From NCBI GenBank assembly GCA_000934665.2, contig KZ538252.1:1-64000 (forward strand): 64,000 bases of DNA. Reading direction: 5' to 3'. This DNA comes from Catajapyx aquilonaris. Lineage: Eukaryota. The position numbers and the translations under genes are program-made. A model generated the notes under the pieces. It was given only the letters and a program-made list of their open reading frames with translations. It did no database searches and was not told where the DNA came from. Below are positions 4,559 through 63,119 of the stretch, one piece after another. Each line of letters starts with the position of its first letter. Within the stretch, counting starts at the first letter, position 1.

Positions 4559-5060
4559 ATGTCCCGGACACCTGTGGCCTACCTGACCAGAAGGGAAAAG
4601 TTCAGCGCAGCACACAGGCTATACAAGTACTGTACCGCACCTTGCACCAATTGCGCTTACTATTTAACATCCAATCCGCAGCGATGGGATGTCCGAAGAG
4701 GACAACCTCCGCATTTATGGGAAGTGTGCCCACCGCAATGGGCACGGACACAACTACACTGTGGAGGTGACGCTGAAGGGGCCGGTGGATCCCAGGACGG
4801 GGATGGTGATGAACCTGACTGACCTGAAGAGGGCCATGGACCAGGCCGTGATGGACGTCCTGGACCACAAGAACATAGATAAGGACGTGGAGTACTTCAA
4901 GACCAGGGTCAGCACCACTGAGAACGTGGCCGTCTTCATTTGGGACGGGCTGAAGGAGGTGCTGCACATACCCAAGCTACTGTACGAGGTCAAGGTGCTG
5001 GAGACGGACAAGAACATCGTGGCATACCGCGGGGAGTTTGCGGAAACGACACAGATCTGA
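4559..5060 (+). CDS. PTS: 6-pyruvoyl tetrahydropterin synthase (purple); exons 4559-4626 and 4682-5060
   Basis: [20 protein letters not shown] (catalytic Cys and Zn-binding His), LDHKNID, STTENVA and ETDKN. A 55-bp GT-AG intron joins the frames. Confidence 0.96.
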
Positions 5061-5320
5061 GCTTCCTGATTGTTAAAAGATTGCGAACAATATATTCAGT
5101 AAAATTAATTTTTATTTCAATGTACGGTATAAACCCAAAACAAATATTCAATAGTAATGGTGCGTTTACATGTGAGCGATTTGATTGTGTGATGTCATCA
5201 CCGAGCGATGAATTAAATGGTTTGAGGTGAAAGTAACAATCGATTTTCGCCTCAAACAATACTGGTTACTTTGGTTACGCTTACGCAGCGATGTTACCGC
5301 TGGCGATGACATCGCGTGAT

Positions 5321-42498: not shown

Positions 42499-44225
42499 TC
42501 ACTTCCCGATGCAAAACTCTTTAAAAATCAGGTCGAGAATGTCTTCTGTGCTGACTCTCCCTGTGATCTTCCCAATGCTCCTCACTGCCTTCCTCAGCTC
42601 CTCGGCCATCAGGACAGTGTCGCCTTGTCTGGACCACATCTCCAGGAAATTCTCCAGACACGACACACACTTCTCCAGGTGCATCCTGTGTCTGGTCTGG
42701 GTCAAGTTGGGGTGAGTCTGTGTTGGATTAGCACATCTGAAAGATAAAGTGAGTTAGCAATGGCTGCAGAAGTGTGAGGAGCGGTGAGGAGTATTGTGAG
42801 GAGCTGCTTACAATTGCGACACATGCTCCTTCAGGCAGTTCAGAAAGTCTCCTACTCCTTCTTCAGTTTTGCATGACAACCAACACACTTTAACCTCTGG
42901 AACATCCAGCATGTCCTTGTTTACAAGCAGATCCACCTTATTAGCAACAATTAATATCCTGCCGGATGTCTCAAGATTCTTCATTGCATCACTTGCACCC
43001 TGAGAAGCATCAAACATCAGGACAACCAGATCAGCCTCCTGAGCACTGCTCCTGGCTCTCTTCACTCCTTCTATTTCTATGGGGTCCAGACTCTCCCGAA
43101 TTCCAGCAGTGTCCCATAGAATCACAGGGAATCCTCCCAGATTCAAGCAAGATTCAAGGACATCTCTGGTTGTCCCAGGAATCGGAGACACAATTGCTGT
43201 TTGTCGTCTGCCTGTAATAAACAAGCCATAGATTGCTAATGTTTCCATTGTTTGTTGAAGATTTGTAAGGACAGCTTACAAAGCAAATTCAGCAAACTGC
43301 TCTTCCCCACATTAGGCTCTCCAATTATAGCAATCTTCACACCACTCCTCAGCCTCTCTCCTTTCCTGTCATCCCTCAAGTGGTCCTGAAGTTCCCCCAG
43401 CAGGAGTGTCACTTCTTCCTCAACAGTTGACATCACATCATCCTCAATATTCTCATCCTCCCCAAAGTCGATATATGCTTCTGCATTGGCCAAACACTGC
43501 AAAGACACTATTGCTCACAACTTCATTGTAACGAACCAAACCACAGACCTTCGTGAGAGTGGATGTCCATTTGTTGTAAATTCTACTGAGAGCTCCTTCC
43601 ATCTGATTCAGCGCTTGCTTCCTCTGTGCTTCAGTCTCAGCCTGAATCAGATCAGCCAATCCCTCCACTTCAGTCAAATCCAGTTTACCATTGTAAAACG
43701 CTCGTTTGGTAAATTCGCCTGAAAATGTAGTGATTAGAAAAAAGCACGTATCTGAAGCAGTAGAGGACACACCTGGTTCTGCCATCTTCAATCCAGGCAC
43801 CTTTCCTAGAGCCCCCAACATATCCTGGACCACAGCAATTCCTCCATGGACATGGAACTCACAAGAGTCCTCCCCTGTGAAGCTGCGTGGACCAGGAAAC
43901 CACAGAACTAGACCTTTGTCTATTGGCTCACTGCTCACTGGATCTCGTATCTTCTTGAGGACCGCCTTTCTCGGAACAGGAGGACTGTCCATTCTGACCA
44001 TTTTGGTCAAGGCAAATGCTGACCTGGGGCCTGACACTCGGATCACTGCAACTCCACATTTACCACCACCTTGTACCCGGAGAAACATGAGACAATGAAA
44101 CTCCACGACACATCATCTGCAGACATGGTCTTACCTGATGACAATGCAAATATAGTAGAACTGGTTCCATTGCACCTGATACCAACCCCACACAATGTAA
44201 CAAAACGTTTCAATAGTAAAGTCAT
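42499..44225 (-). CDS. GTPBP3: Mitochondrial tRNA modification GTPase (MnmE/TrmE); multi-exon
   Basis: [49 protein letters not shown]1 GEPNVGKS, G2 PGTTRD, G3 DTAG, G4 NKVD and C-terminal FCIGK. Confidence 0.96.
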
Positions 44226-44265
44226 TGCACAATTTCACAAATAGCCAACAGTTTATTTCGTGTCT

Positions 44266-47200
44266 TCACCACGGTTCGTACATCATCAGAAGAGAGTCAC
44301 CTGTAATATGTCGTCCAATATTAAATTGTATAACATACACACATGTGTACTCACATGCTAGATTGTAAAGTCGATCCCTTTCCTCCATGTTCTCGCACAA
44401 TGCCTCTAGAATCACCATGTATCTGAACAGGGTGTCACGAGGCCACACTGTTTCTCCAGCGTAGTTCGTCACCACATCAAAATTCTTCAAGACTTCATTA
44501 AACCACTCCGTGTCTGCAAACAGGAAAAGAAATAGTGAATAATTATGTTTATGATGATTATTGCGCTGTACAGTACCAACGCCACTGTCTGCTTGTTCGG
44601 ATTTGTCAACAGTGGACTGGGTCAGACCCGAGGTCAGACCACTCGAAGCAGACGTGCCTGAATCTTTTCGTTTGGGTGGCGACAGACCACTGGGACTGTA
44701 GAGAAATCATGCTGTGTTACGTCATGTAACAACACCCTACTGAAAGAACACAGTACGCACATGTCCTCAATGTCCTCATTGTCCTCCGTGTCTTTCTCAT
44801 CCTCGTCAATTTCCTCCGGAACTTCCATTTCCAAGTTGGCCATTTCACCATACCTTTCCATATCTTCAGCAAGATCCTCAACCTCTCCACCTAAGGTGCT
44901 CCTGATTGCCTGGAAGTCGTTCACTGCACAACGGATTAGAACAGCGACAAAAGACAGAATCGACATAACGCACCCATGACTGCCACGAACAGATTGAAGA
45001 AGATGAAGTGTCCAATCATGATCCAGAGTATGACGTAGACGTAAACAATGGGCGATTCCACACCTCGTTGAAGATCCATCATGATCTCAAACCAATGATC
45101 AAGGGTTGTTAGTTGAACAAGGGTTATGACTGCACTAAGCAAGTCCTGAACAGGAATACGGTGTGGTTACACTTCTGATGAGAGCAGCCGTCCCAAGGAG
45201 AAACACCATAACTTCAAAACTAGTAAGGGTGAAAGTCGCGTGCATGCCCGGCACTGGGCCAGGGAGGGATTAGTGCATGGCATGCACGCGAATTTCACCC
45301 TTACTAGTTTTGAAGTGTGCTTCACTTACACCCATGCATCCTTTGTACTTCAGGTCAAGCCCGGATCTCGTGTGTCGCTCAAACAGGAAGATTCCCACGA
45401 TCGAAAATATGTACATCATGATCAGAAGTAGCAAGAGGACGTACAGCATCGACTATAGAAATGAACAACAATAATTGTTCAACCACTTCTGATAATCATC
45501 AATCAACACTCTACGCACTTTTCCTGCTTTGATAATGGCCTCCATTAGAACTCGAATCTTCTTGAACCTAGTGACCATCTTGAGAGCCCTGAAGATCCTC
45601 AACACTCTCAGATTGTTCAGAAGTGAGAAGTAGGCCTGAAGTGTGTCCACATTTTCTTGACTATCAGTCGACACCAGAAGACCCATCACGGCTGGTAGCA
45701 ACGACTACAACAAACATGTGTAAACCTACAGACTGTTCCTATACATTGTCAATCAGTTCTCACCGTGAATGTGACCACAAAGTCAAATATGTTCCAGGCT
45801 TCACCCCAGAATTCCTTGAAGTCGTCCAGCCATTTCAGTAGGATTTCTACGACGAACATGATCAGACAGAATGTGTCGAAGACATCCAAGTAGTAGATGG
45901 CTATCTCACTCTCAGGTGTGTGCATGTCGCCCAGTTCTGTCGATTGTAAGTGAGAGGCTTTTGGATTGTTACGAACAATGTGTGCGCACCTGTTTGAGCA
46001 GCCAGAACGATCGAGTTTCCGAGGATGATTAAGAGCATGATGAACTTGAAGTATTTATCCGCCAACAACCAGTGAGACCAAATGTCCAGAGGAGGATATC
46101 TGCTGAGGCGAACCGCCATCATCCTCAGACGTATGTCAACTTCATCTTCCTCCTCACCTTCATCCAACTCCTGATAATGGCAACAATAACAATGTTTTTT
46201 CCCACCACTGATATTGTCCACTTTACTGTCCCACAACACAACTGGATAGTGTGAAGATGAACCACTTTGGAAAGGACTTTCGTATTCGGGAGATCGAATG
46301 TGACAAGGGTATATAGGGGCACGCTGTACCAACCTACCCCATGACCTAACTTTCCTTCCCGGCGGATACATATATGCATATCATTCAGCGGATACACGCC
46401 TAGGAGAGTAGGTAAAAGTGTGGGGTCTCCCAATACAAAAGCGGATAGTCCCATTTTGTCCAAAGACATGTTCAACAAAACAGTATCGATAATAATAGTT
46501 GTTACTAATTAAGCTTTCACTTTTTAACAATAATTAGTAATTATAATAGTTAAAAGTGAAAGGTTAGTTCTGACATCAGTTTTAAACACGTGAGCAATTT
46601 TTAAAATGGTCACAGACCGTAAAGGAGCCTACAACAATTTTAATTCTAATTATTATAACAATGGCTGACCACGGGCCAATTCAATTGCTCACACATTAAT
46701 TTAAGAAAATCAATGCAGGTTGCATGTGTCAACACGTCAAATGATTGCGAGTAATCATGCATATGAATTTTTAAGTCAAATTGAAATTATTATAGTTAAC
46801 TATTCGGCAATTATCTGCAGTTGTCATCAAAAATAACAATTAAAATATTTTCCATGTTCCTAGTGCCCTCTGTGGTCATTTCAAATGTGAAAAAAATGCA
46901 GAACATACCCCATAATAATTTCTCAACTAATATTTTCTTAATAGTTGTTATACACCTCAAAAGTAATTCTTTCATTGGTCGATATGCCTTTGGAATGTTT
47001 TGTACAGTATACTGCTGGCTTCAAAAGAGCGAATCGAAGCGCCGTATTCATTCCGGCCATTCGCTCTTTTGCCTCCAGCGCCACCAGCACTGTACTGATC
47101 CTCATAATAAATCAAGAACACCTCACATCGTCCTGTGAATGTGCCAAGAACATCACCAGACCATCCGGATTCAGCAGCAGCATCTCCCTCAACGAAGCCG

Positions 47201-47430
47201 GATCTACAACCAACCAGTTCTAATGTTTAAAAAAAAGTCCCTATACAAAAACCTTGTTGTGTACCTTTCACATCTTCAGCATCATACGAGGGTATGATCA
47301 TTTTCTCAGTAGAATCCACCCTTGCATTCAACCCATGAAACTTTTCAACAATCCTAGTCCTCATATATTGCCCTTCTTCGGACACCATGTCCTCTAGGGT
47401 GTTTACAGTCTTCCTAAATCCTGTATACAT
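44266..47430 (-). CDS. CATSPER2: Cation channel sperm-associated protein 2 (6-TM pore subunit of CatSper); about 10-11 exons
   Basis: RLSRYPPLDIWSHWLL, EILLKWLDDFKEFWGEAWNIFDFVVT, S4 LRVLRIFRALKMVTRF, pore TLDHW, VNDFQAIR coiled coil and C-terminal VWPRDTLFRY..LEALCENMEER. These closely parallel mammalian CatSper2 (RPPLSLWAGW, EILLKWL..WKSAWNVFDFVVT, TLDHW, VWPRDSLFRY). Confidence 0.92.
45190..45320. mobile_element. Small palindromic MITE in a CatSper2 intron (second copy at ~49388-49510)
   Basis: ACTTCAAAACTAGTAAGGGTGAAAGTCGCGTGCATGCC ... GGCATGCACGCGAATTTCACCCTTACTAGTTTTGAAGT. Confidence 0.8.
46265..46455. repeat. Interspersed repeat; uninterrupted relative of 19640-20090
   Basis: GGGAGATCGAATGTG..TAGGGGCACGCTGTACCAACCTACCCCATGA..TTCCTTCCC..GCGGATAC matches the sequence flanking the 19714 insertion. 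Confidence 0.75.
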
Positions 47431-47626
47431 CTTTGGTTCTTCCTATATATGACCAGTTCCAGCCAGGGTATATCGATCAAGCTGTAACAATAAACAAATT
47501 ATCTTCTCTACAACCCCCTCTCCAGCAGGTGGGGGTGTTCCCAACCCCTAACCACCAAAAAAGCAAGAGTATTAGGTCGATATTAGGCAACCTGTATCAA
47601 TTTGTTGAGACATGTAAACAAATGGC

Positions 47627-47640
47627 GTTCGTATGGAAAC
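47627..47640. promoter_or_regulatory. Candidate RFX X-box in the CATSPER2/TTLL bidirectional promoter
   Basis: GTTCGTATGGAAAC has one mismatch to the X-box consensus GTHNYYATRRNAAC. Confidence 0.5.
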
Positions 47641-47718
47641 GGTTCTAAATATTCGTAATCAACAGTGTGGGCCCAGGAAACAACCGGCTCCGTGCTTTAT
47701 ACGGCAGCCATGTATTAG

Positions 47719-50700
47719 ATGGACGACCCCATATTCCAAGGTATGTCCAAGAATGTCAATGATGTCCAGCAGGAATGTTCCAAGTCCAGCAGTGATTATC
47801 CCATAGGTATTCAGAAACTCCTGGTGATCGCACGTAAGACGGCTGAAACGGGTCATTGGGGTTCGAACAGATCACGTCGAGGCAAAATGCTGGCCAATGT
47901 TCCTGAAGGATCCAGCGACAATAATGGTCCGTTGTCGGATGAGGAAGATGATGGTGAGGAAGATGCTGAGGAGGAAGAGGAGGCGGAGGAGGAAGAGAAG
48001 GAAGATGCTGATAAGGGATACACGAATGGGTCGCCAGTATTGAGCCGCGAATCGCAGTTGGGGTTCTTCTCGGAGTCTGAGAGTGAACCAGGTATGTTGG
48101 TACTTTGAAGCAAATGGTGCCACTGTTGCTGGGTATTCCCCACAATCGATGTGGATAAATCGCTAAATATCGATTGTGGGGAATCGGCCACTGGTGTGTA
48201 TTTATAATATTATAAATACACACCAGAGGCCGAATCCTGTGTCGAGGACACCTGTAATGGACAGTCACTTAAAGGGACACTCCACTCAAAATACAAGTTG
48301 GGCTCTAAAAATCGGGCAAAAAATCCTGACTCCGAGGGTATAAGCAGTTTTTCTGAGAGACGAACGGTAAGGCCAGGGCGAAAGCTGGAAGTGTGTCATT
48401 CGAAAACCGCGCTCAAACGGGCCCGGCGCAGGTGGCGACGCCACCCTCTGAGGGTGACGTTGGATAGTAGCGCCGCCCTTCCCAACGGCGACTTGGATAA
48501 GTTCCCTGCGGGTATAGGGATCCGCGGGGATCTGGTTGTGTCCGAAGCCAACTTCCCCTAGTGCCCGTTGGGAAGGGCGGCGCTCTATCCAACGTCGCCT
48601 AACTTGGCCAGGTGGCCAGGCGGCGCCACTCTCGAACAGACCTCGAATTTTTTTCCGACTTTCGTCTCTTCCCCTCACATTACCGTTCGTCTCAGAGATA
48701 AACGGATGGTATCACCGGAATCAGGATTTTTTGCCTGATTTTTACAGATCAACTTGTATTTTGAGTGGAGTGTCCCTTTAAAGGAGTAAGGTAGCAGACC
48801 TGAAGCTCAAAATAGCCTCCAAGACGGGTATTCCCACATCCTGACATATTGTGAGGGGGGCACTGTGGCGCGGCGCCCACAGGTTTGTGAGCGCCTCCAC
48901 GAGAGGCGCTCACAAACGCCACCACAGTGCTCCCCTCAGGAAGAGGTAAGATAGCCTCTCTTGGAGGCTATTTGAGCTTCAGGTCTGCTACTTTACTCCT
49001 ACCTGATGCTCAAAATAGCCTCCAAGAGAGGTGCTCCCCCCTGTTCCGAACAAATTGTGAGGGGGCACTGTGTGGCACCTACAGATTTGTGAGGAAGAGG
49101 TAGGATCGCCTCTCTTGGAGGCTATTTTGAGCTTCATGTCTGCTACCTTACTCCTACCTGAAGCGCAAAATAGCCTCCAAGAGAGGCGCTTACAAACATG
49201 TGGGTGCCACCACAGTGACCCCCTCACAATTTGTCAGGAGAGGTAGGCGCGGTAGCCTACAAGACTTCTTCCTGACAAGTCGTCAGGAAGAGGCTATTTT
49301 GAGCTTCATGTCAGCTACCTCATGTGGAAGTGATTGTACTGAACATATTAGAGTTACTGGACAATTCAGTGGACACCAGTTCTGCTGTCCCAAGGAGAAA
49401 CGCCCTAACTTCAAAACCAGTAAGGGTGAAAGTCGCTTGCATGCCCTGCACTGGGCTAAAGGGGGGATAAGTGCAGGGCATGCACGCGACTTTCACCGTT
49501 ACTAGTATTGTAGTTAGGATGTACCTCCTTGGGACGGCAGAAGAGTTATGTAAACAGGCTCAGTTGCTCAAATTTTTCCAGAGAGAAGTGCTCATAGTTT
49601 ATCCCCTGCCAAGAGTGAGAGTACAGAGCAATTATATGGCAAAGCGCGTACTCCTTCCGCTCCTCCTTCCTTTCACTCCACGGCGACTTTGAACGGCCAA
49701 ATAGGTACGGTATGTCTAGCAGATAAATCGTAGTATAGTGAATGCTTTTTGTCCTACTACCTCCAGATCCACCGACGCCAGAACTAGAGTACGGAACTAC
49801 TACAATAACAACCAACGCTTCTACCCTGGAATCAACTCTAGCAGCGCTCAAGAAGTCCCACAAGAAGAGGAAAAGGAAAAGGTGACAATGTCCTTCCCAG
49901 TGTCTCTGTAAGATCTGTAAGCATCTTCTTCTTCTTCTTAGGAACCTAACAATAAACACATCCAACTGTAAGTACGAAGTGGTGAAATCAACGGCCCGTA
50001 AATTCGGTATGATTGAAGTAGGGGATGAAGATCAGTGGAACCTCTGCTGGACCGACTTCTCAGTCTCCATCGAGCGTGTTATCGACATGAAGCGATTCCA
50101 AGTGAGTACACGCTGAATCCAAGTCTGGTTCACACTACTAAACATCCCTGTTGGATGTTTGATGTTTCAGAAAATCAACCATTTCCCTGGCATGCTTGAG
50201 ATTTGTCGAAAGGACCTCCTGGCGCGGAACCTGAACCGCCTGAAGAAGCTGTTTCCAAGGGACTACGACATCTACCCTCTGAGCTGGTGTCTCCCTGCAG
50301 AGTGAGTCAACTATTACAGAACAGGTGGCATCACCGCGACCTCAGACACATCTGATCATAGTTCAGCGATTTCTGATCAGATCTTAGTCCTCATAGTTTA
50401 CAGATGTCTGATTTAGTCCTCACAGTTCAGGGAAGTCTGATCACACTTTAGTCCTCACAGTTCAGGGAAGTCTGATCACACTTTAGTCCTCACAGTTCAG
50501 GGAAGTCTGATCACACTTTAGTCCTCACAGTTCAGAGAAGTCTGATCACACTTTAGTCCTCACAGTTCAGAGAAGTTGATCAGACATTAGTCTTCACAGT
50601 TGAGAGATTTCTGATCAGACATTAGCCCTAATCACAGAGATGTCTGATCACATCTTCTGAGTCTTACCGATCATGAGTGAGGGCTGGGCAAGAACTTTCG

Positions 50701-52956
50701 TGTGTCTGTCCGCGGTGACTTCCCCTCCAGCGTTGTCCTGAATGTCCACACTGTCCCGTTCGGTCTAGCTTAGGCGATCTGATCGCCTACGCCAAGAACA
50801 AGCGCAACAAGACCTTCATCTGCAAGCCGGACATGGGCTGCCAGGGCAGGGGAATCTTTTTGATGAAGAACCTGAAGGACGTCAAGCCAGGAGAGAAACT
50901 CATCTGTCAGCTCTACATTGCCAAGGTATCATCTCGTAGTGACCTCGCTCTTTTAGAGTTGTGACACTAACTGGTTTTGACACTTGCAGCCATTCCTGAT
51001 CGACGGTTTCAAGTTCGACCTGCGTGTCTACATTCTGATGACCTGCTGTGACCCTCTGAGAATATATGTCTACAAGGAGGGATTGGCCAGGTATGACCCT
51101 TTGAGACACTAGAGGACAGTGTATGATTCGACACTCTTGTTTTCAAAGATAGGTCTACCGCTGCAGGAAAGATGGGTAAACTCATCGACAGATTATAACT
51201 ACTCTCTTGTTATCCACACGATATGACTGTACCTAGCTCTATTGCATGTTGTGCACAAGTGACACATTTTCTTGAGATTCGTAGATGCCACTATCAGTAC
51301 CATACTTCAAAGGTGCTGCACCTCTTCACCACTCCTACACTTGACACAGATACTCTCAGAGTTTCGACTTAACAGCGACGTGCAGTGTATATAATCACAG
51401 TGTGTTGCAGGTTTTCGACTGTGCCATACCAGGAACCCACCATGGAGAACCTGAACAACCAGTACATGCATCTGACCAACTACGCTGTCAACAAGCACAA
51501 TGATGGCTTCCTTGCAGGAGACGATGTTGGCAGCAAAAGGTTGGTTCCCTTGCATGGTGGGTCATACCGGGTACTGACCATTGTTCTCACAGACGCATCA
51601 CCAGTGTCAACCGTTGGCTCCGTAACCGCAACTACAATGTTGGTGAGCTGTGGGGCCGCATCGACGACATGGTGGTGAAGACTGTCCTGTCGGCACACCC
51701 TGCCATCAAGCACAACTACAGGTCGTGCTTCCCACACCAGGAAGGACTCAGCGCCTGCTTCGAGGTACTTGGCTTCGACATCCTGTTGGACCAAGGGCTG
51801 AGACCGTACCTCCTGGAGGTCAACCACTCCCCGAGCTTCCACACGGAGCAGATGGTGGACAAGCATGTCAAAGAGGCTCTCTTGTCTGATACCTTCGCAA
51901 TGCTCAACCTGGGGAGGTATGACAGAAGGCGGGTGATGGAGGAGGACAGAAGGAGGGCCCAGGAGAGACTCCTCCAGAAGACAAAGGAACAGGGGAAGAC
52001 CACAGAGGATGAGCACATCAAGAGGACGGAACAGGCACAGGCAAAGTTCGAGGAGAACAACTGCGGTGGGTTCCGTCTGGTGTACCCCTGTGCTGATGAG
52101 AGCAAGTACAAGAGATACTTCGACCAGGGGTTTGGGTCGCTGTACCAGGAGACAGCCGCATCAAGGGCCAGGGAGGAGTGCACCAGGCAGCAGCAGGAGG
52201 AGTTCCAGTCGAAGGTCAAGGAGGAGTTGCTCAAGAGGCCCAGGCAGCTCCTTGGTCAAATGGGACAGATGTATGGTGGGAAGAAGGACCAGCCGCCTGA
52301 GTCACCCGAACACTGCAGCAGGGCTCCCAGCAGAGGAGCCACCTGTTCCAGCACCAGCACCAGCATCACCAGCAAGCCACCACGAGCACCTAACCGACAG
52401 AAGGTCAGAAAGGTATGTATGTGATCAGTGCCAATGGGGTGATATGCTCGTGTCATACAATCCCCTCACCCTGCAGCACGCCAACAAGTACAACTGGAGC
52501 ACCCCTAGCAGATACCTGAACCAAAAGCGCAGCAGTAGCAAGCTAGTGCCCCCTTCCCTGTGCTCGTTTGAACCCATACCCATCCGTGATGCCGAGGAGG
52601 AGGAGAGGATCCGCAGCCTCTCCTACCGGGAGCTCCTCATCCGCAAGAACGGGGTGGATGTCCAGCTGCACCAGGACCTCTCCAAGATGAAGCTGGCTGC
52701 AGAGATCAAGAAGCACACAAGAAGCCAGCAGATCGCCTTCCCAGGAGACAACCCCAGCATCCCCAACAAGAACCATGTAGGCACCCAACCAGTCACCACC
52801 GCGAAGAATCTTAGGTCGCCCCTAGACTTATCCAAATGGTGTTCTGCCAAAAGTGTTACAATGTGCAGCAGACCTCACCCGCCGCGGAGGCCAAAGTGGG
52901 CGCAGAATGGGAGGGGGAATATATCAGGCCAGCCGCACAACAACACTGACAGCTAG
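47719..52956 (+). CDS. TTLL6: Tubulin polyglutamylase, TTLL6/TTLL13 family; multi-exon (3' end approximate)
   Basis: NCKYEVV..WNLCWTD.SVSIERV..FQ|KINHFPGMLEICRKDLLARNL, ICKPDMGCQGRGIF, PFLIDGFKFDLRVY, EGLARF, MHLTNYAVNK and CFEVLGFDILLD..PYLLEVNHSPSF. Confidence 0.92.
48273..48777. mobile_element. Kolobok-like non-autonomous transposon with TTAA TSD
   Basis: TTAA|AGGGACACTCCACTCAAAATACAAGTTG ... CAACTTGTATTTTGAGTGGAGTGTCCCT|TTAA (perfect 28-bp TIR). Confidence 0.88.
48782..49320. repeat. About three tandem palindromic MITE-like units (CCTGAAGCTCAAAATAGCCTCCAAGA..TCTTGGAGGCTATTTTGAGCTTCA)
   Basis: Units at ~48782-49000, ~49001-49156 and ~49157-49320. A related end is at ~23055. Confidence 0.75.
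50350..50650. repeat. 35-bp minisatellite (CTGATCACACTTTAGTCCTCACAGTTCAGGGAAGT)n in a TTLL intron
   Basis: About 4 near-exact units plus several degenerate ones. Confidence 0.9.
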
Positions 52957-54711
52957 CAGACACCAGACATTGCACTGTAGTTCTTTAGACAAACGACAAA
53001 AATCCTGGTATCCTACATTGTGTGAAGAACGTGCAAAAAAATATTTGGAATGAAAAATTGTCCATGCATTATCACTTGAGAGCATGACGGTCAATATACT
53101 GATAGTGTCCCGCAAATGTTTTAGGTAGATATGGTAAAAAGTACTGTCGAGGCTAACATTACATAAAGAGTGGCTCTACAACTTTACAAGCTGTAGGAGC
53201 TGTTCATGATGTGGCCTCGGAAGTACTGTAATGAAGGTGCCCAATCCACAGACAGCCGACTAATTTATACGAACAATCCCTCATTAATTTTTCTCATATC
53301 ACAAATATCGCAACATTTTCATCCAATAAAACTTTCCCACGGATCTCAAATTAAGAGGAAGAAACCACCCCGGCCACATTCAGCAACCACCAGTGCAAAG
53401 CAAGTGAGCACTTTTTCATATAAATTATGACGGCTTCTGCAAATTGGGCACCTCGCAGTTAACACCATTTTCTCTTGCCTTCTTTTACATCCTCCTCCCT
53501 CTCCCGCCCTCCCTCCAACACCCTCCCGTCCTCTTCAGAACAAAAACAAGACTTCAAACGAACGGACTTCGCTGCTCATGGGTGCATGCGACCCAAACTA
53601 CGCGTACCATAGTAGTCAGAATCAACTTAGGCCAATAAGCCCTACGCCACATATGCCGGATCAATTGAGAACAATACCCGGTAAGCAATCAATTGATATT
53701 TAACACTTAGAAAAAGTCAACTGCAGATTGCATCTCTTTTCAGCCGACCCTGCACTGTCTGTCCTCTACGGCCAATCTTTGTCCATTACTTCGACCAGGC
53801 AACATCATACTTCAAGAAAGTCCATCTACAACCTGGGCACCACAACTACTTCAAAATCCATAGACGGATTCTACAGGGAAACCTAAAAATTATTGTTACA
53901 TATTTGTAATTTTATACATCACACTGTGTAGACACGGCTGTAAGGGAAATGTTGTTAGTGGCAAACGGGTGTGTGCTGGGAAGAGGCACAATGGAATACA
54001 GATTTTTAAACTAGCAGTAGTTTTTTTTATTGTATTCTATTGCACATCCACCTCATTAGCGGGTGAAACAAATCATTCATCACTTAACATACAGGATTAA
54101 TCACAATAATATGGATATAAAACAAATGCTATTTGTCACTCGGGTGTATCATATGCAACAGCATGAGAGGGTGGAGCGTGTAAATTGCATAACGCTGCTT
54201 GTGGGTGATGCGGCAATGACTTCCCGCCAGGCGATTCTATTCTCCATTGCAGGGGACAATGCGATTGGATACAACAAAGTTTGTTTGTCTGTTTGTCCAT
54301 GGCAAGAAGATGCACCACAACATTTGGCGCCTTACAATCGAGAATAGAATTGCCTAGCAGAGGCCACAGTTCTGCTATGCACTCGGCCAGTACTCATTTA
54401 AGAAAAATTTGTATTTCCTTTTATTTGCCCATTTGCAATTTTCTCACACCAAATGTTCGACTGTAAATTCCTTAAAAATTTAATACAAAAATTAGAAGGT
54501 AGGTAAAACTAAAAGTAGATATATTACAATAGCTGCCCACATCTAAGCACTAAAATCTCCCCCAGACATTTACTACTTTGATTCGAATGTGAATACTGAT
54601 GATTATTATGAGACGTTAATCACCAACAGCGTTATGTAATTTATCTACAGATAATAAAGATTGAATGGGTTAGTTCCTATGCCTAAAAACACTTTAAAGA
54701 TCGAATGAGAT

Positions 54712-55920
54712 TCATGGCTTGAACTTGACCAAGGGAATGTTTTTGGCTTGAAGGCACTTGTCACATACCCACTCTGCATACACCTCGGCTGTTAAGAGGT
54801 GATAAGCTGCCTCGGTAAGACCAGTGCAAACCCTAGAATGGAAAGTAGGATTAGACACTGAGCGCTGAGTGTACAGGGCGATGGGTACCTATGAAACCAG
54901 AAGTTGCATCCAGACTCGCAGAGGATGGCCTGGTCGTTGTCATGCACCTCCTTGTGGCAGATCCCACAAGGGTAGATTGGCGGTGCGTTTGGATTCTGCG
55001 GGTTGAACACCATGGGCTGGTCCGGTGGGTAGATCTTCCCGGTGGAGACTGGCATTGGCTTGGGGCCACCCCCTCCGCCCATGGGTCCTCCGCCCATCGG
55101 CCCACCACCCATCGGACCGCCACCCATGGGTCCTCCCCCCATAGGCCCACCCATGCCCCCTCCCATGGGGCCGCCCATCCCCATCCCGCCCATGGGCCCA
55201 CCCTGGAAGGGATGGTGGTGGTGGTGCCCTCCGCCCATGGCCATGCTCACTGGGGGCATCCCATTCATGTTCCCCATTCCGCCTCCACCTCCTCCTCCGC
55301 CGCCTCCGCCTCCACCGGCCATGCTGTTCAGGCTGTTCATTGCATCCATCATCGGTCCCAGTCCTCCGAGATGGTTCATGTTGCTTACGGGACACATCAC
55401 ACTGGCCCTGGGTCCACCGCCACCCATGGGGCCGCCCATGCCCATGCCCATCGGCGGGGGCGGCGGGTGGTGCGGAGGGGTGTCGTCAAACGGGTTGGAT
55501 GCAACAATCGTGTCGCCATACCCTGAAATGCAATGTAATTAGTCTGTGTCGCTACAGACATACGGACAAGTGTTACCTGACAGCGGTGGAGGCACCAGGT
55601 CGGGCAGTGACGGAGATGCCTGTGCCGCGTTGTTAGAGGCTGCGTTTGACGTCCTCCTCTTCTTCTTGGCGTTCCCCCCTGGGCTCTCTGGAGGGCCGCC
55701 CCCTCCCGCCCCGGGGCCTGCCCCACCTCCGCCCCCTCCTCCCCCCGCCCCACCCCCAGGGGACTTGAACTCCCCCGCCACCGCCGACGAGGGGATTCTC
55801 TTCCTTGCAATCGCACCAGTGGAATGGCAGGCCGCGGAAGGAAACTGTGGCCGCTGTCTAAGGAGCAGGGGCCGGACCAAGGGCGGAACAAGACCGGGGG
55901 CCAAACTGTGGGGCTGTTCC
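54712..55920 (-). CDS. PYGO: Pygopus (Wnt/beta-catenin co-activator); 5' start uncertain (possible lone ATG exon at 56081)
   Basis: NLS KKKRRTS, NHD DLVPPP..DTIVASNPFDD, and PHD finger PCGICHKEVHDNDQAILCESGCNFWFHR|VCTGLTEAAYHLLTAEVYAEWVCDKC..IPLVKFKP*. Confidence 0.93.
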
Positions 55921-57757: not shown

Positions 57758-60700
57758 ATGGCCCAGGCTGTGGCCTCCAAGTTCTCGGTCCTTCGGGTGG
57801 AGGACGAGGACGGCGCCGAGTGGAAGACGACCGGAGGTGGGTCTGGAGGAGGGAGGAACAAGGGCAGCAATGGGCACCACCACAACAACCACCAGCAGCA
57901 GGTGCAGGATGCCCCGCCACCCAAGCCCCTTCCTCCGGGTCTGGCTGGGCCCAACAGCCACCCCCACCAGAACAACAGCAACAATGTGCAGAAGCAGCAG
58001 AAGAAGCTGGAGAAGAAGGACAGGAGCCAGAAGAAGAAGGAGGCCAAGATGGAGATCGAGCAGGTCCTGCGGAGATGACATTTTTTTTGAAGTGGAAGGC
58101 TGATGGTGCGGGGTTTGTTACAGCTCAAGTCGCTTGCGTTTGGAGCACCCAAGAAGGCCAAGGGCAAAGGTGGGGCTGGCGGGAAGCAGCTTGGGGGTGA
58201 CCAGTGGCAGGAGTGGAAGAAGAGGGACTTGGAGGTGCACAATTTTGACCTTTCATTGTTAAGCGATGGTGGTAAATGTGAAATTAATTGCTAATGGTTA
58301 ACCCTTTGTATCTCGCGGCCAGTATGATCATACCATCAAACAGAATTTTTTAAAATTCGACGGAAACTTCTTTCACCATGGCCATAAAGGCCGGTATCGA
58401 CATGCGAGTTCCTCTTACGCGAGAAATCTTGTACATCGAGACGGACTCTTTGTTGCCTCAGGGCCCCTCTTGTCCCTCGAAAAGGGGATTAAAGTTGAAA
58501 ATTTGCAACTTTTCCTCGTTCCTCGTATCCGGGCTTGCACAGTCGGCTCCTCGTATGCGAGAAAACTTGTACGTGGATACCGGCCTTAAGCTGGGTATCC
58601 ACGCCAGAGTTTTCTCTTATCACAGAAGCAAACTGCGCATCAGAGGAAAGAGAAAATGTAGACAATTTTCAACTTTAATCCCCTTTCTGATGGGCCAGAT
58701 GGGCCCTGAGGCGACATAGAGTCCGTCTCGACAGACAAGTTTCTCATGCAAGAGGACTCATGGATACCCAACCTTAGGAAATGTTCATAGCAAGAGGGTA
58801 GTCACTTTGGAGAGCTGGTGTACACCGTCACTGGTGAGCCTCGGTGAGCCGGGGCAAAACGCGCCTTTGTACCTCATCATTCCTCGTCATGTAGCGTAGT
58901 TTGCCTTCGGCAGCCATGCTCACCAACATGCTCATCAGTGAGTATACACCGGCTCACCCATGGTCTTACTGGCTCACCGATGCCGCAGAGAGCCATGGAA
59001 AGCTGCAATGCGACAGAGCCAGTGTGCACTTTTTTGAGGAGTGACTATACCCCCTTGGTTTATAGTTTCTATGTTCATGAGTATTTACGCCACTCGCGTG
59101 ATATTTTTAATGGCATATCACAAGCCAAATGTCTCATAGTGAACACTTACTGCATGAATTTAAATATACATAGCTCCCTGCCGCATATTTCCCAGTAAGT
59201 AGACGTGCAACTGACAACCATTAAAAGATTCCTGAAATTCTGCGACTTACTTTTTGCCCGGGGGGGGGAGAGACGAAATAAGAATGATCTGTCGAGGGTA
59301 GGCAAACTCCCTCGGCGCCATTGCAGCAATGTCAGCTCCTGGACGGACTGCTCCGAGCTCTAGGCAGTGGCCACTTGCCACCTGAGCCGCCTCTTTTGCA
59401 CCTGGTGGACTGTTAAAATTTTAAAAACTGACACTTAATATTTTCATAATTATTCATCAGAGGGACGGAGGGCAATCATATAGGATTATCTTGGATTTTT
59501 TGGGGGGGGTGGAAGCTGCCTAAAAGAACCCTGCATAGATGCTGCTGATGATGTCACTGTCTCGTGTATAGCATATGAGGCAGTATATATGGCTCTCTCA
59601 AGATGCAACTCGGGTTTCTAGGTCTCGGATGCTTCAGGCCCCTCTTGTGCATGAATCGAGAGCGAAATCAATGACCAGTGATTTTCACCTGGGGCGCTAT
59701 TTTTAAACCCAAACCCAAAGAGTGCATAATTGAGCAGGAGACTAACGGTTAATGATTGTGGACAAATACCCACCCAAGAAAACTGGCAGCCAGAATTGCT
59801 GCAGAGAAGAAAAATCCTAAATTTTGGGCATTTATACTGGAAAAAGTGTTCTGGCTTTTCCCTGAATCAGCAGCGTGAAAGCCATGAGTGTGCCAAGTTT
59901 CAGTACTCTCAGTAGTCTGGGAGTGGGTTAGGTAGCCATGAGATGCATACATACCAACGAACTTTCTCTTTTATACAGGGTGTTCTAAATTCGTGGGTAG
60001 TTTTTTAAATAACTACTATTGGGCAATATCCTCACGACCCGCGAATTTGGAACACCTGGTATATGTAAGATTGGACGACACGTTGCGATGTCACATTTCT
60101 CCACGCAGTTTGTGACGGAGGCGTATGAGCAGGATATGCAGCAAGCGATGCTGTTGTCCAAGCTGGACTACGAGGAGAAGAAGGACTTCTACGACGAGAT
60201 GAAGAAGGACAGGGTCAACTTGGCAGCAAACGATGGTTCCAAGGGGAAGGAGAAGGCGGGGAAGAAGAAGGAGAAGAAGGAGAAGAAGGGGAAGAACCAG
60301 CCCATGTCCTTGGAGCAGTTCAACAACTTGCAGCCATCACAAGTGGGTCATGTTGGCAAAATAGGCATACAGTAACCAAACGCTCTTTACCGTGCCAAAA
60401 TCCCGGAATTAAGTTACCGTGTGCTTCTCTATTCAACAGAAGTCTCAGCTCGCAATCGGTACCCGTGATCTGGACATCAATTAATGCAATCCCAATCCAT
60501 AAGGGAGGTGACCCTGAGGTGGCATCAAATTATCGCCCGATCTCCTTGCTAAACAACATACTAAAATATTTTACGTCGATCCTTGCTTTTCGACTTCGCA
60601 GATGGTGCGCGGCACACGATGTGATTCCGAAATCGCAGGCGGCATTTCGAGCAGGCATGGGGTGTCTTGACCACGTTTTTACTTTGCATGTTTTGACGCA

Positions 60701-63119
60701 AAAATACGTAGCTAAGCCGAAGGGAAAACTTTACGCAGCATTCATTGACTTGTCAAAAGCGTTTGATTCTGTGGAGCACGATTTTCTTTGGCGTACAATG
60801 GCTGTCTCCGGGATAAGTTCTAACTTTATTAGGTTGATTAAAGACATCTATGTGAAAGCACACATTATATCCGGGCACCCAGGTCTGGAACCTGTGGGAA
60901 TAACAAAAGGTGTGCTGCAGGGAGAATCACTGTCGCCCACCTTGTTTAACATATTCTTGGCTGATCTGGACGCGGCACTTGCAAAGGGATCATCCCTTAG
61001 TTAATTTAGGAGTGAACCAAAAGGACATCCCGATGTTGATTTACGCTGATGACGTGGCTTTGCTTGCGGATAATCCGATTTATTTACAACAACTGCTGAC
61101 GAGGTTAAATGAGTACTTTGTAAGTGAGGGGTTATCGATTAATCACAAAAAGTCTAAAGTCGTGGTATTCCGGAAGGGAGGGCGCCTATCAAGTAGGACA
61201 CAGTTCATGTTGGGGGGGCCTCCCTTTGGAAATAGTTAATAATTTTCAATATTTAGGGATTCCCTTTGCAATGTCGACTAAATTCACCAGAACTATGGAA
61301 GGTTTCAAGTCAAAAGCCATGGCGGCTATCAACTCAGTATGGTCCTTACTGGTGAGGCTCAGGATACGCGATTACAAAATCGCTATGAAGCTTTTCTACT
61401 CGAAAATTGTTCCAATTATCTAGTGCGGTTTCCCAATCTGGGGGCTGCGGTATGTTTATGAGATGGAAGTGATCAGAATCATTTTTTGAAAAAGTTGTTT
61501 CTGTTGCCTCGGTCGACGGCGGGCTTTTTTCTCAGGTTGGAGCTGAAGCTGCCGCCCCTGGCCTACTGTCTTTTTAGGCAGATAATTCGATTTTATAATA
61601 AGTTGGTGGAAAAGTCGCCAGACACATTAATGGGAAGCGCATTTTCCTACGAAAAACGAATCCACTCAGGAGGACAGACGGTCACATTTAGTTGGCTATC
61701 CAATTTCCGGAAGATGTTGACGGAATTGGAGGTATCCTTCCCGCCCGAGGGTGGATTAGACGTCTCAGTTGTTCTGCCAGAGATCCTGGCAAGATTAAAA
61801 CGCCGGGATAGCTTAGCCCTAGGAAGTTCGAATAGTTACTCAAGCTACGCGAGCTCATTATTAATGAACGGACCAGCAGATACCTACTTATCAGCTTTGT
61901 TACCTCTGCAAATCACTCGTCTGATAATAAATATAAGAAACCTTTCCGCTAATTATTACGTATGCGGAGAGGTGCTGCGAGTGTTTCAAGATGAGCCATG
62001 TGATTATTGTTGTATGATGCAGCCTCAGACTCTCCACCATTTCATTTTCGAGTGTCCAGTTTTCAATGGGCCCAGGGAGCGTTACCTAACAGACTTGCCC
62101 CATTCCCCTCCAGATCGCTTGCTATGGTCCTTCGCAAATATAACAAAGGATCAGGCCTTCAATGTTTTTTTCTTTTTTTAAACGGCCCTCCGTATACAAG
62201 AATTATGTCAAAATTGATTATTGGATAATATATTTCATGTATTTTGGTATGGCTTGCTGTGCACGGTAATATTGATGACAATGCTATTTGTATGTAGGGA
62301 GCAGGATTCCCCCAAAGACCCCGCAAGGGGTGGCACGGGGTAATTGGAAAAAAAAAAAGGCATACAGTAACTGTTCATTGCAAGCTGTTCTCATCCCAAA
62401 ATTTTTCCAGATTGACAGCCATGAAAGTAGCCCAAGTGTGGAAGGAGTTGAGAAACCAACGTCTGGCAGTAAGAAAAAGGGTGCCCCAGCCTCCGTCACA
62501 CCGGCAGTGGAGAAGGACCCTGAGTTCTTCGATCGCATAGCTGACGAAGCAAAAGCGGCTGTGCGCCAAGAGAAGGAACGTGAGGAGAAGAAGGAGGCGA
62601 CCAGGCGGAGGGACAAGTACATCCCTGAGCTGATCAAGATGAATCGTTTCGAGGAGGAGCTCAAGGCCAAGGAGGAAGAGTGCAGGTTTCTAAGGAAGGA
62701 GGTGGAGAAGCTCCGAGTAGACTTGCAAAATGTCAAAACTAGGAACAAAAAGCTCTGCAACATTCTGGCACAGGGAGAGAGTGAGTCTGCCCTTTCGAGG
62801 ATCTCCCCATAATTTCTAACATTGTCCGGGATGCTAATGCCGTTTCGTTTATTTCTGATTCAGTGCGAGACAAGGCTGAAGTAATCGTGGAGATGGAGAG
62901 GTTAAGGAAGGTGAAAGACGAACTGACTGAGGAGGTAAGCAGTCTCTCCGGCCAGCTAGAACAGGAGCGGTCAAAGGTCAGCAACCTCACATCAGAGCTC
63001 AAGAAGAATCAAGTAAGCACACGTTCGTTACTTCTCACAGGGAATTAATATCGGACAGCTGTTATACCAAGTGCATCTTTCCGCAGGGCAAGAAGAAGAA
63101 CAACTCTTCAAACGACTGA
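57758..63119 (+). CDS. GKAP1: G kinase-anchoring protein 1; exons 57758-58063, 58124-58234, 60109-60342, 62411-62780, 62864-63012, 63087-63119
   Basis: ASKFSVLRVE, LKSLAF, WQEWKKRD, YEQDMQQAMLLSKLDYEE, DPEFFDRI, VKTRNKKLCNILAQGE|MRDKAE and LEQERSKV. Junctions are phase-compatible GT-AG. Confidence 0.9.
58791..59057. mobile_element. MITE with CA..TG ends and 8-bp TSD (P/hAT-like)
   Basis: CAAGAGGGTAGTCACT / AGTGACTATACCCCCTTG, flanked by GTTCATAG / GTTTATAG. Confidence 0.82.
59976..60059. mobile_element. Tiny Tc1/mariner-like MITE
   Basis: TA|CAGGGTGTTCTAAATTCGTGGGT ... ACCCGCGAATTTGGAACACCTGG|TA. Confidence 0.7.
60377..62358 (+). mobile_element. 5'-truncated non-LTR retrotransposon (LINE) with frameshifted RT, in GKAP1 intron 3
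   Basis: RT motifs NYRPISLL, QAAFR, FIDLSKAFDSV, GVLQGESLSPTLF, YADD and FQYLG; C-terminal CDYC..HFIFEC zinc knuckle; poly(A) at 62348-62358; TSD GGCATACAGTAAC at 60364-60376 and 62359-62371. Confidence 0.95.

Follow-up and report, generated by a model that had tools for sequence, protein, structure and literature searches.

A CatSper2 ortholog divergent from a TTLL6/13-type tubulin polyglutamylase gene in Catajapyx aquilonaris, with a chance-level X-box-like motif between them

Do two genes whose products work in the sperm axoneme answer to one shared promoter when they lie back to back, and would such a promoter be read by an RFX factor? The question is raised by a locus of Catajapyx aquilonaris in which a minus-strand gene for CatSper2 and a plus-strand gene for a TTLL6/13-type tubulin polyglutamylase diverge from a short spacer. 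The locus lies at 44266..52956 of a 64,000-nucleotide stretch (assembly GCA_000934665.2, contig KZ538252.1, positions 1 to 64,000 of the forward strand), referred to below as the window. CatSper is the Ca2+ channel of the sperm flagellum, and both gene products work in axonemes. A sequence-only reading had proposed that CatSper2 and TTLL6/13 form a sperm-flagellum module, switched on together by a single RFX-bound X-box in one bidirectional testis promoter. The analysis presented here favours a plainer account, in which members of two known gene families are likely to form no more than an ordinary divergent pair, in an invertebrate genome that is tightly packed. The sequence gives no sign that one RFX site drives both genes, and the X-box-like 14-mer between them appears to be a weak, chance-level match. 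RFX control and a sperm "module" are, on this evidence, unsupported hypotheses.

Identity and arrangement of the two genes

Short GT-AG introns run through the window, whose DNA is eukaryotic. Checked against the letters, the claimed start codons (CatSper2 ATG at 47430 on the minus strand, TTLL ATG at 47719 on the plus strand) are exact, the gap between them at 47431-47718 measures 288 bases as stated, and the 14-mer GTTCGTATGGAAAC occupies 47627-47640. The gene models also bear out the outer limits, with the CatSper2 stop codon ending at 44266 and the TTLL stop codon at 52956. The two genes do lie head-to-head: the orientation of both and the CatSper2 start at 47430 stand, the latter backed by N-terminal homology, and the TTLL start at 47719 is probable. 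The models are as follows.

44266..47430, minus strand: CatSper2 ortholog, 11 coding exons, 517 amino acids
47430-47265, 47203-47127, 46170-45990, 45936-45764, 45704-45519 and 45452-45330, minus strand: CatSper2 exons 1-6
45145-44974, 44923-44761, 44695-44577, 44513-44355 and 44300-44266, minus strand: CatSper2 exons 7-11
47719..52956, plus strand: TTLL6/13-type tubulin polyglutamylase, 9 coding exons, 821 amino acids
47719-48091, 49767-49881, 49942-50101, 50171-50301 and 50769-50925, plus strand: TTLL exons 1-5
50990-51090, 51411-51539, 51593-52412 and 52477-52956, plus strand: TTLL exons 6-9

By homology, the minus-strand gene is an intact CatSper2 ortholog, predicted to encode a pore-forming subunit of the sperm flagellar Ca2+ channel. 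The identity first given to it is upheld by an Ion_trans domain, by matches to subunit 2 in the PDB and by end-to-end alignment with CatSper2-like proteins. Firstly, the model, which was assembled from coordinates alone, contains no internal stop, and all 10 of its introns (50-956 nucleotides, nt) are GT-AG. Its residues 6-515 align with residues 4-529 of the 530-residue CatSper2-like protein of Priapulus (36.7% identity, E 7e-109), and the CatSper2-like protein of Patiria is matched at E 1e-90. Secondly, open reading frames (ORFs) of four exons match the Ion_trans family (PF00520; E 5.5e-8, 3.6e-6, 4.1e-4 and 1.6e-10). These pieces jointly span positions 32-230 of the 241-position profile, and three of the four lie individually above the 25-bit cut-off. 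A T-x-D-x-W pore and a regular pattern of basic residues in S4 are defining features of CatSper proteins. Here the pore reads TLDHW, aligned with the same motif in the CatSper2-like proteins of Priapulus, Patiria and eel, and the S4 helix is LRVLRIFRALKMVTRFKKIR, in which every third position is basic.

Finally, PDB searches with three CatSper2 exons listed no CatSper chain other than subunit 2. The S3-S4 exon matched 9ubw_B and 7eeb_B (E 0.0034 and 0.05), outranked there by two designed TIM barrels, surely spurious matches. For the pre-S1/S1 exon, 7eeb_B was the best of 8 matches (E 4.4e-4), with a PPL..W..W stretch aligned to residues 83-123 of mouse CatSper2. For the C-terminal exon, mouse 7eeb_B was the sole match at E <= 1 (E 7e-5), and VWPRD..LFRY...LEER aligned with residues 544-580 of the 588 in mouse CatSper2. 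A profile-free search of the pre-S1 exon against 1.84 billion representative proteins returned eight matches, three of them named CatSper2-like by NCBI (Priapulus, Patiria and electric eel). The top-ranked of the eight, P0121, is an unrelated, internally repetitive protein and was rejected. A word-index search with the pore exon returned no match.

CatSper2 exon 1, taken alone, had no match in the PDB at E <= 10; by BLASTP it had none against the Priapulus protein and reached E 0.57 against the Patiria protein. The N-terminus is settled by the full-model alignment together with relaxed tblastn searches with CatSper2-like proteins, which uncovered the small exon 2 (47203-47127) that had been hidden from the ORF list. 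Along the Patiria and Priapulus proteins, the N-terminal exons match in collinear order. ATG 47430 is taken as the start codon because the alignment begins at residue 6 and because a typical, in-phase 61-nt intron joins exons 1 and 2, and it is very probably the true start. A TATA-like sequence, TATATAG, lies at 47443-47449 on the minus strand, 13-19 bases upstream of this ATG. It is too near for a transcription start site (TSS) ahead of the codon; if it were used, translation would begin at the next in-frame methionine, codon 15.

The plus-strand gene is likewise confirmed as a TTLL6/13-type polyglutamylase by its TTL domain, by its closest named relatives and by its best PDB match, mouse TTLL6. 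The model has no internal stop, and all eight introns are GT-AG. The TTL domain (PF03133) is found on four exon ORFs (E 7e-8, 1.6e-9, 6.9e-13 and 2.6e-20), and across residues 140/165-732 the protein is ~50% identical to proteins named TTLL6 or TTLL13. The largest exon gave 524 protein matches, in a list led by insects, with identity of at most 52%, and the database therefore contains no close relative. In the best 120 of these 524, nearly all named entries are TTLL6 or TTLL13, one row is TTLL9, and the others are unnamed or hypothetical. Among PDB entries, mouse TTLL6 (6vzt, 8u3z) ranks first, exon 8 matching it at E 8e-60 and exon 5 at 4e-20, followed by TTLL7 (1.2e-29) and TTLL11 (1.4e-11).

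In TTLL6, Gln180 and His362 separate the elongase from initiases, and among other elongases the histidine is described as shared by TTLL13 only (10.1101/2020.06.07.139295, a preprint). In the Catajapyx protein, GCQGRG aligns with residues 178-183 of 8u3z_N, so that the equivalents of Cys179-Gln180 are kept, and EVNHSPSF aligns with the histidine at position 362 (by offset from 8u3z_N). With the equivalents of Gln180 and His362 in place, the enzyme should lengthen alpha-linked glutamate chains on tubulin. It thus carries the same elongase residues as mouse TTLL6 and TTLL13 at ~50% identity, and differs from them in its first 140-160 residues and its C-terminal tail, which are unrelated apart from a short conserved stretch at 52558-52686. 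By eye, intron 4 of the gene contains a tandem array of ~45-base units at 50340-50640.

The first coding exon of the TTLL gene

How close the two genes lie depends on where the TTLL gene begins, and the following features are at issue.

47719..48091, plus strand: putative TTLL first coding exon, 124 codons, acidic, without homolog
48092..49766, plus strand: TTLL intron 1, 1675 nt, full of high-copy foldback repeats

Exon 1 is the weakest link in the head-to-head claim. It is nonetheless quite likely to be real and to start at 47719, judging by its frame, splice phase, codon usage and rank. Its donor, CAG/GTATGT, is in phase 1 and fits the phase-1 acceptor at 49766. Its codon-usage score of +0.31 is the best of the six frames, exceeds the 99th percentile of non-coding windows (0.12) and is positive in its own frame for all three sub-segments of the exon. 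Among 72 candidates running from an ATG to a phase-1 donor in 47431-49766, exon 1 ranks first, in a ranking whose donor matrix included the exon 1 donor itself as 1 of 18. The runners-up mostly reuse its frame, with a later ATG (47743 or 47887) or the weaker donor at 48082.

The alternative is that there is no shared promoter, the 5' end of the TTLL gene lying at some other place, such as a TSS close to exon 2 with ATG 49742 or an unrecognised exon, and the ORF at 47719-48091 being non-coding or part of something else. This is unlikely, and the observations that speak for it are the ones that count against a divergent pair with its TTLL start at 47719. The alignments with TTLL homologs begin no earlier than about residue 140-165, and none reached upstream of 49886. 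No Pfam family was found on 47719-48108, and the N-terminal regions of 120 TTLL homologs, searched against 47431-49945, gave no credible match (best E 0.011, in intron repeats). The product of the exon 1 ORF would be acidic and low in complexity, and long ORFs are likewise present on the opposite strand there. An in-frame ATG is present at 49742, and an intron of 1675 nt is unusual beside the 53-467 nt of the other TTLL introns.

Against this alternative stand the coding score in all three sub-segments and the donor, which is the best of the candidate set. ATG 49742 itself lies inside the pyrimidine tract before a good acceptor, with a high-copy repeat upstream, and intron 1 is long because of repeat insertions. 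Of 17 inverted-repeat pairs in 47000-50000, 16 fall within intron 1, where the word depth in a DNA run reaches 39,325 against a baseline of ~30. They include a perfect 16-nt pair (48135-48150/48169-48184), a hairpin of 29 nt (48180-48237) and arms of 73 nt (49380-49542). The repeats look like a very abundant family of the miniature inverted-repeat transposable element (MITE) kind.

A two-codon upstream ORF (ATG TAT TAG) in the 47710-47721 region ends just before the TTLL ATG at 47719. It is relevant only with a TSS upstream of 47710.

The spacer, its X-box-like motif and the regulation of the pair

Three features of the interval between the start codons bear on regulation.

47431..47718, no strand assigned: inter-ATG spacer, 288 bases, presumed site of the CatSper2 core promoter
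47627..47640, no strand assigned: X-box-like 14-mer GTTCGTATGGAAAC, 79-92 bases upstream of the TTLL ATG and 197-210 bases upstream of the CatSper2 ATG
47586..47591, minus strand: lone canonical RFX half-site GTTGCC, not significant

If TTLL exon 1 is real, the spacer would presumably also be the site of the TTLL promoter. The distance between the ATGs is then 288 bases, or up to 456 if a later in-frame TTLL ATG is used. The spacer is single copy (DNA-run depth ~29), and Rfam and tRNA scans of 43000-54000 found nothing.

The label of RFX X-box is not borne out for the 14-mer, which matches none of the three consensus forms tested and, when scored strictly, is no rarer than chance would have it. 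Read on the minus strand, GTTTCC AT makes an acceptable half, and the other half is degenerate. The worm-type X-box consensus, which we take to be GTHNYYATRRNAAC (GTHNYY AT RRNAAC), is not matched exactly; GTTCGTATGGAAAC fits it with one mismatch, a level of match that the window offers at 13 further sites. At one mismatch this consensus gives 19 strand matches at 14 distinct sites, where shuffles lead one to expect 10.6 +/- 3.8 and 4 of 100 shuffles attain 19. With the palindromic consensus GTTRCCATGGYAAC, the 14-mer has four mismatches, a level equalled or bettered at 134 strand positions of the window, about one per kb. The most degenerate X-box consensus given for the fly, RYYNYY N1-3 RRNRAC (PMC2375033), has 119 strand matches in the window and none at 47627-47640. 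The RFX consensus GTNRCC N0-3 RGYAAC, with the monomer GTTRCY (PMC10530576), has its sole match in the window at 5265-5278, away from the GTTCGTATGGAAAC site, which by its letters carries three mismatches to this form in the left half and one in the right. Across these consensus forms, matches equal to or better than the 14-mer occur once per 1-5 kb of the window, and a given stretch of 288 bases would contain one by chance with a probability of ~5% if scored leniently and ~30-45% if scored strictly. The lone GTTGCC half-site is not significant, since GTTRCY occurs 96 times in the window and ~0.4 occurrences are expected per 288 bases. Nor is there enrichment of the DRE-like motif TATCGATA, which at up to one mismatch has 22 matches against 16.7 expected.

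Under the favoured reading of an ordinary divergent pair, the spacer most likely holds two close-set or overlapping core promoters, given start codons 288 (up to 456) bases apart. Both genes would probably be expressed in spermatogenic cells, because both products work in axonemes. The two genes are expected to be regulated separately, like Catsper2 and Pdia3 in the mouse, and their adjacency is expected to reflect lineage-specific packing and not a selected module. Tight packing is the norm in the window, which also contains a second divergent pair, Misato (minus strand) and PTPS (plus strand), a few hundred bases apart, and a divergent pair alone is thus unremarkable. One run, X5, is RNA-like. 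It has no cover over 47137-48070 or the TTLL exons, and within CatSper2 it has two low-depth unspliced pieces, 44595-44848 and 46526-46772, which say nothing on expression either way.

The mouse offers the nearest comparison. There, Catsper2 lies head-to-head with the ubiquitous gene Pdia3, and the shared region drives reporters in either orientation; it is a CpG-island promoter that lacks a TATA or CCAAT consensus and contains cAMP-response element (CRE) and CTCF sites (PMC9714369). The Catajapyx gene resembles mouse Catsper2 in diverging from a close neighbour, and differs in that its partner is a cilium/flagellum enzyme and not a ubiquitous gene. Since the mouse partner is Pdia3, the TTLL pairing is not ancestral to mammals, and since Catsper2 and Pdia3 differ in expression (PMC9714369), a head-to-head pair need not be co-regulated. 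Mouse Catsper1 (PMC5645346) provides another CatSper subunit gene with a promoter active both ways, although the subunit is a different one and the partner is an antisense long non-coding RNA.

Co-activation of both genes through a single RFX-bound X-box in a shared testis promoter is distinctly unlikely, and several observations nevertheless weigh in its favour and against an ordinary pair. The genes are divergent with 288 bases between their start codons, and the spacer holds both the 14-mer and the half-site. The 14-mer, which has one good half-site and AT as its spacer, precedes the putative TTLL ATG by ~80-90 bases, the canonical GTTGCC is 36 bases from it, and the chance of a site within one mismatch of GTHNYYATRRNAAC in a given 288 bases is ~5-6%. 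Two axoneme-related genes as direct neighbours are also uncommon, at about 5-10% by a rough, uncalculated estimate from the share of ciliary genes in animal genomes. Ttll6 falls in the testis of Rfx2-knockout mice (PMC4745085), and in S. rosetta TTLL6 depends on cRFXa (PMC10530576). Because Ttll6 is RFX-dependent in the mouse, a TTLL6 promoter is a reasonable place for a real RFX site.

These cases concern the same enzyme subfamily and set a precedent for its control by RFX. They rest on mutants together with chromatin immunoprecipitation (ChIP) or motif enrichment, whereas here there is a sub-consensus motif in one genome. The mouse RFX2 ChIP is on Ttll1 and Ccdc65, not Ttll6 (PMC4745085). 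The 14-mer, as set out above, fails the three consensus forms tested and is common at its match level, and in the fly study an X-box found ahead of an ATG in a single species did not predict RFX control, which only conservation across species did (PMC2375033). Spermatids of Drosophila express Rfx, yet the sperm of Rfx mutants are motile, so that fly Rfx is dispensable for motile sperm, and how motility genes are controlled in the fly testis is described as unclear (PMC4168999). The text of the mouse Catsper2 promoter study, which reports CRE and CTCF sites and a Pdia3 partner, contains the word "RFX" 0 times (PMC9714369). Among the papers listed by literature searches, no title or abstract named a CatSper gene as an RFX target.

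A further possibility is that the adjacency is a selected, conserved linkage of sperm-axoneme genes that share a chromatin or promoter context under regulators other than RFX. The functional relatedness of the two products, which is established knowledge, and the very short spacer fit such a linkage, but it is very unlikely: the pairing is absent in the mouse, where Pdia3 is the partner of Catsper2 (PMC9714369), short spacers are general in the window, and no second genome with the pairing was found in a metagenome scan of 80 kept loci that is uninformative on the point. One locus of the 80, L001, was the sole one with a clear CatSper2 ortholog and its C-terminal motif. This contig has 494 bases upstream of the ortholog and no TTLL match, and none of the 80 loci yielded one for TTLL at E < 0.4. 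The L001 ortholog, at 495-2251, has very few introns, with its first 360 codons uninterrupted, and carries the same C-terminal WPRD motif. Highly improbable, lastly, is one short bidirectional promoter that locks both genes, with an RFX-type factor acting through the degenerate X-box and the nearby half-site.

Taken as an ordinary divergent pair, the locus has a modest value at present: it supplies clean models of CatSper2 and of a TTLL6/13-type elongase from a genome without a close annotated relative. It also adds, on the arthropod side, one more lineage with CatSper, a channel of patchy retention among arthropods (PMC6660944), and serves as a worked example of how little weight a lone sub-consensus X-box beside a cilium gene carries. 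Were the pairing conserved and co-regulated, it would give a compact natural means of studying how the supply of channels and the modification of the axoneme are coordinated in sperm. Were the bidirectional RFX reading true, the locus would be a hard-wired unit of "beat control plus axoneme tuning", and would point to the use of RFX in an ecdysozoan male germ line, unlike the reports from Drosophila.

Neighbouring genes and other features of the window

The CatSper2 gene forms a tandem run with GTPBP3 and DCP2, in the minus-strand order CatSper2, GTPBP3, DCP2. The ATG of GTPBP3, a TrmE-type GTPase, lies at 44225 on the same strand, 40 bases past the CatSper2 stop codon (44268-44266), and an AATAAA is placed between the two at 44258-44253 (minus strand). 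GTPBP3 has an in-frame stop 12 bases ahead of its ATG, and no AG occurs from the AATAAA to the ATG. The 5' end of GTPBP3, a housekeeping gene, must overlap the 3' end of CatSper2, or both genes must be co-transcribed.

The window's one match to GTNRCC N0-3 RGYAAC, at 5265-5278, reads GTAACCAAAGTAAC on the minus strand. It follows closely on the PTPS ORF (4668-5057) and is upstream of the 3' end of a caspase gene, with no cilium gene evident beside it. For PTPN9, the best match is a cockroach protein (75%), in a match list crowded by receptor phosphatases; the animal is accordingly arthropod-like.

Beyond the TTLL gene, a gene at 54017-55576 on the minus strand stands at a depth of ~43 in run X5 and has two introns of 54-56 nt. 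The joints that mark this run as RNA-like, 54831/54888 and 55521/55576, have CT..AC ends and occur in X5 only. The long ORFs of this gene have no Pfam family and overlap in several frames, which suggests low complexity. Over the ~27 kb of 13000-40000, no Pfam family was found at E <= 1e-4 on ORFs of at least 75 amino acids, with dense genes on both sides. A retroelement is represented at 60129-61236 on the plus strand by its reverse-transcriptase ORF (RVT_1, E 1.4e-24).

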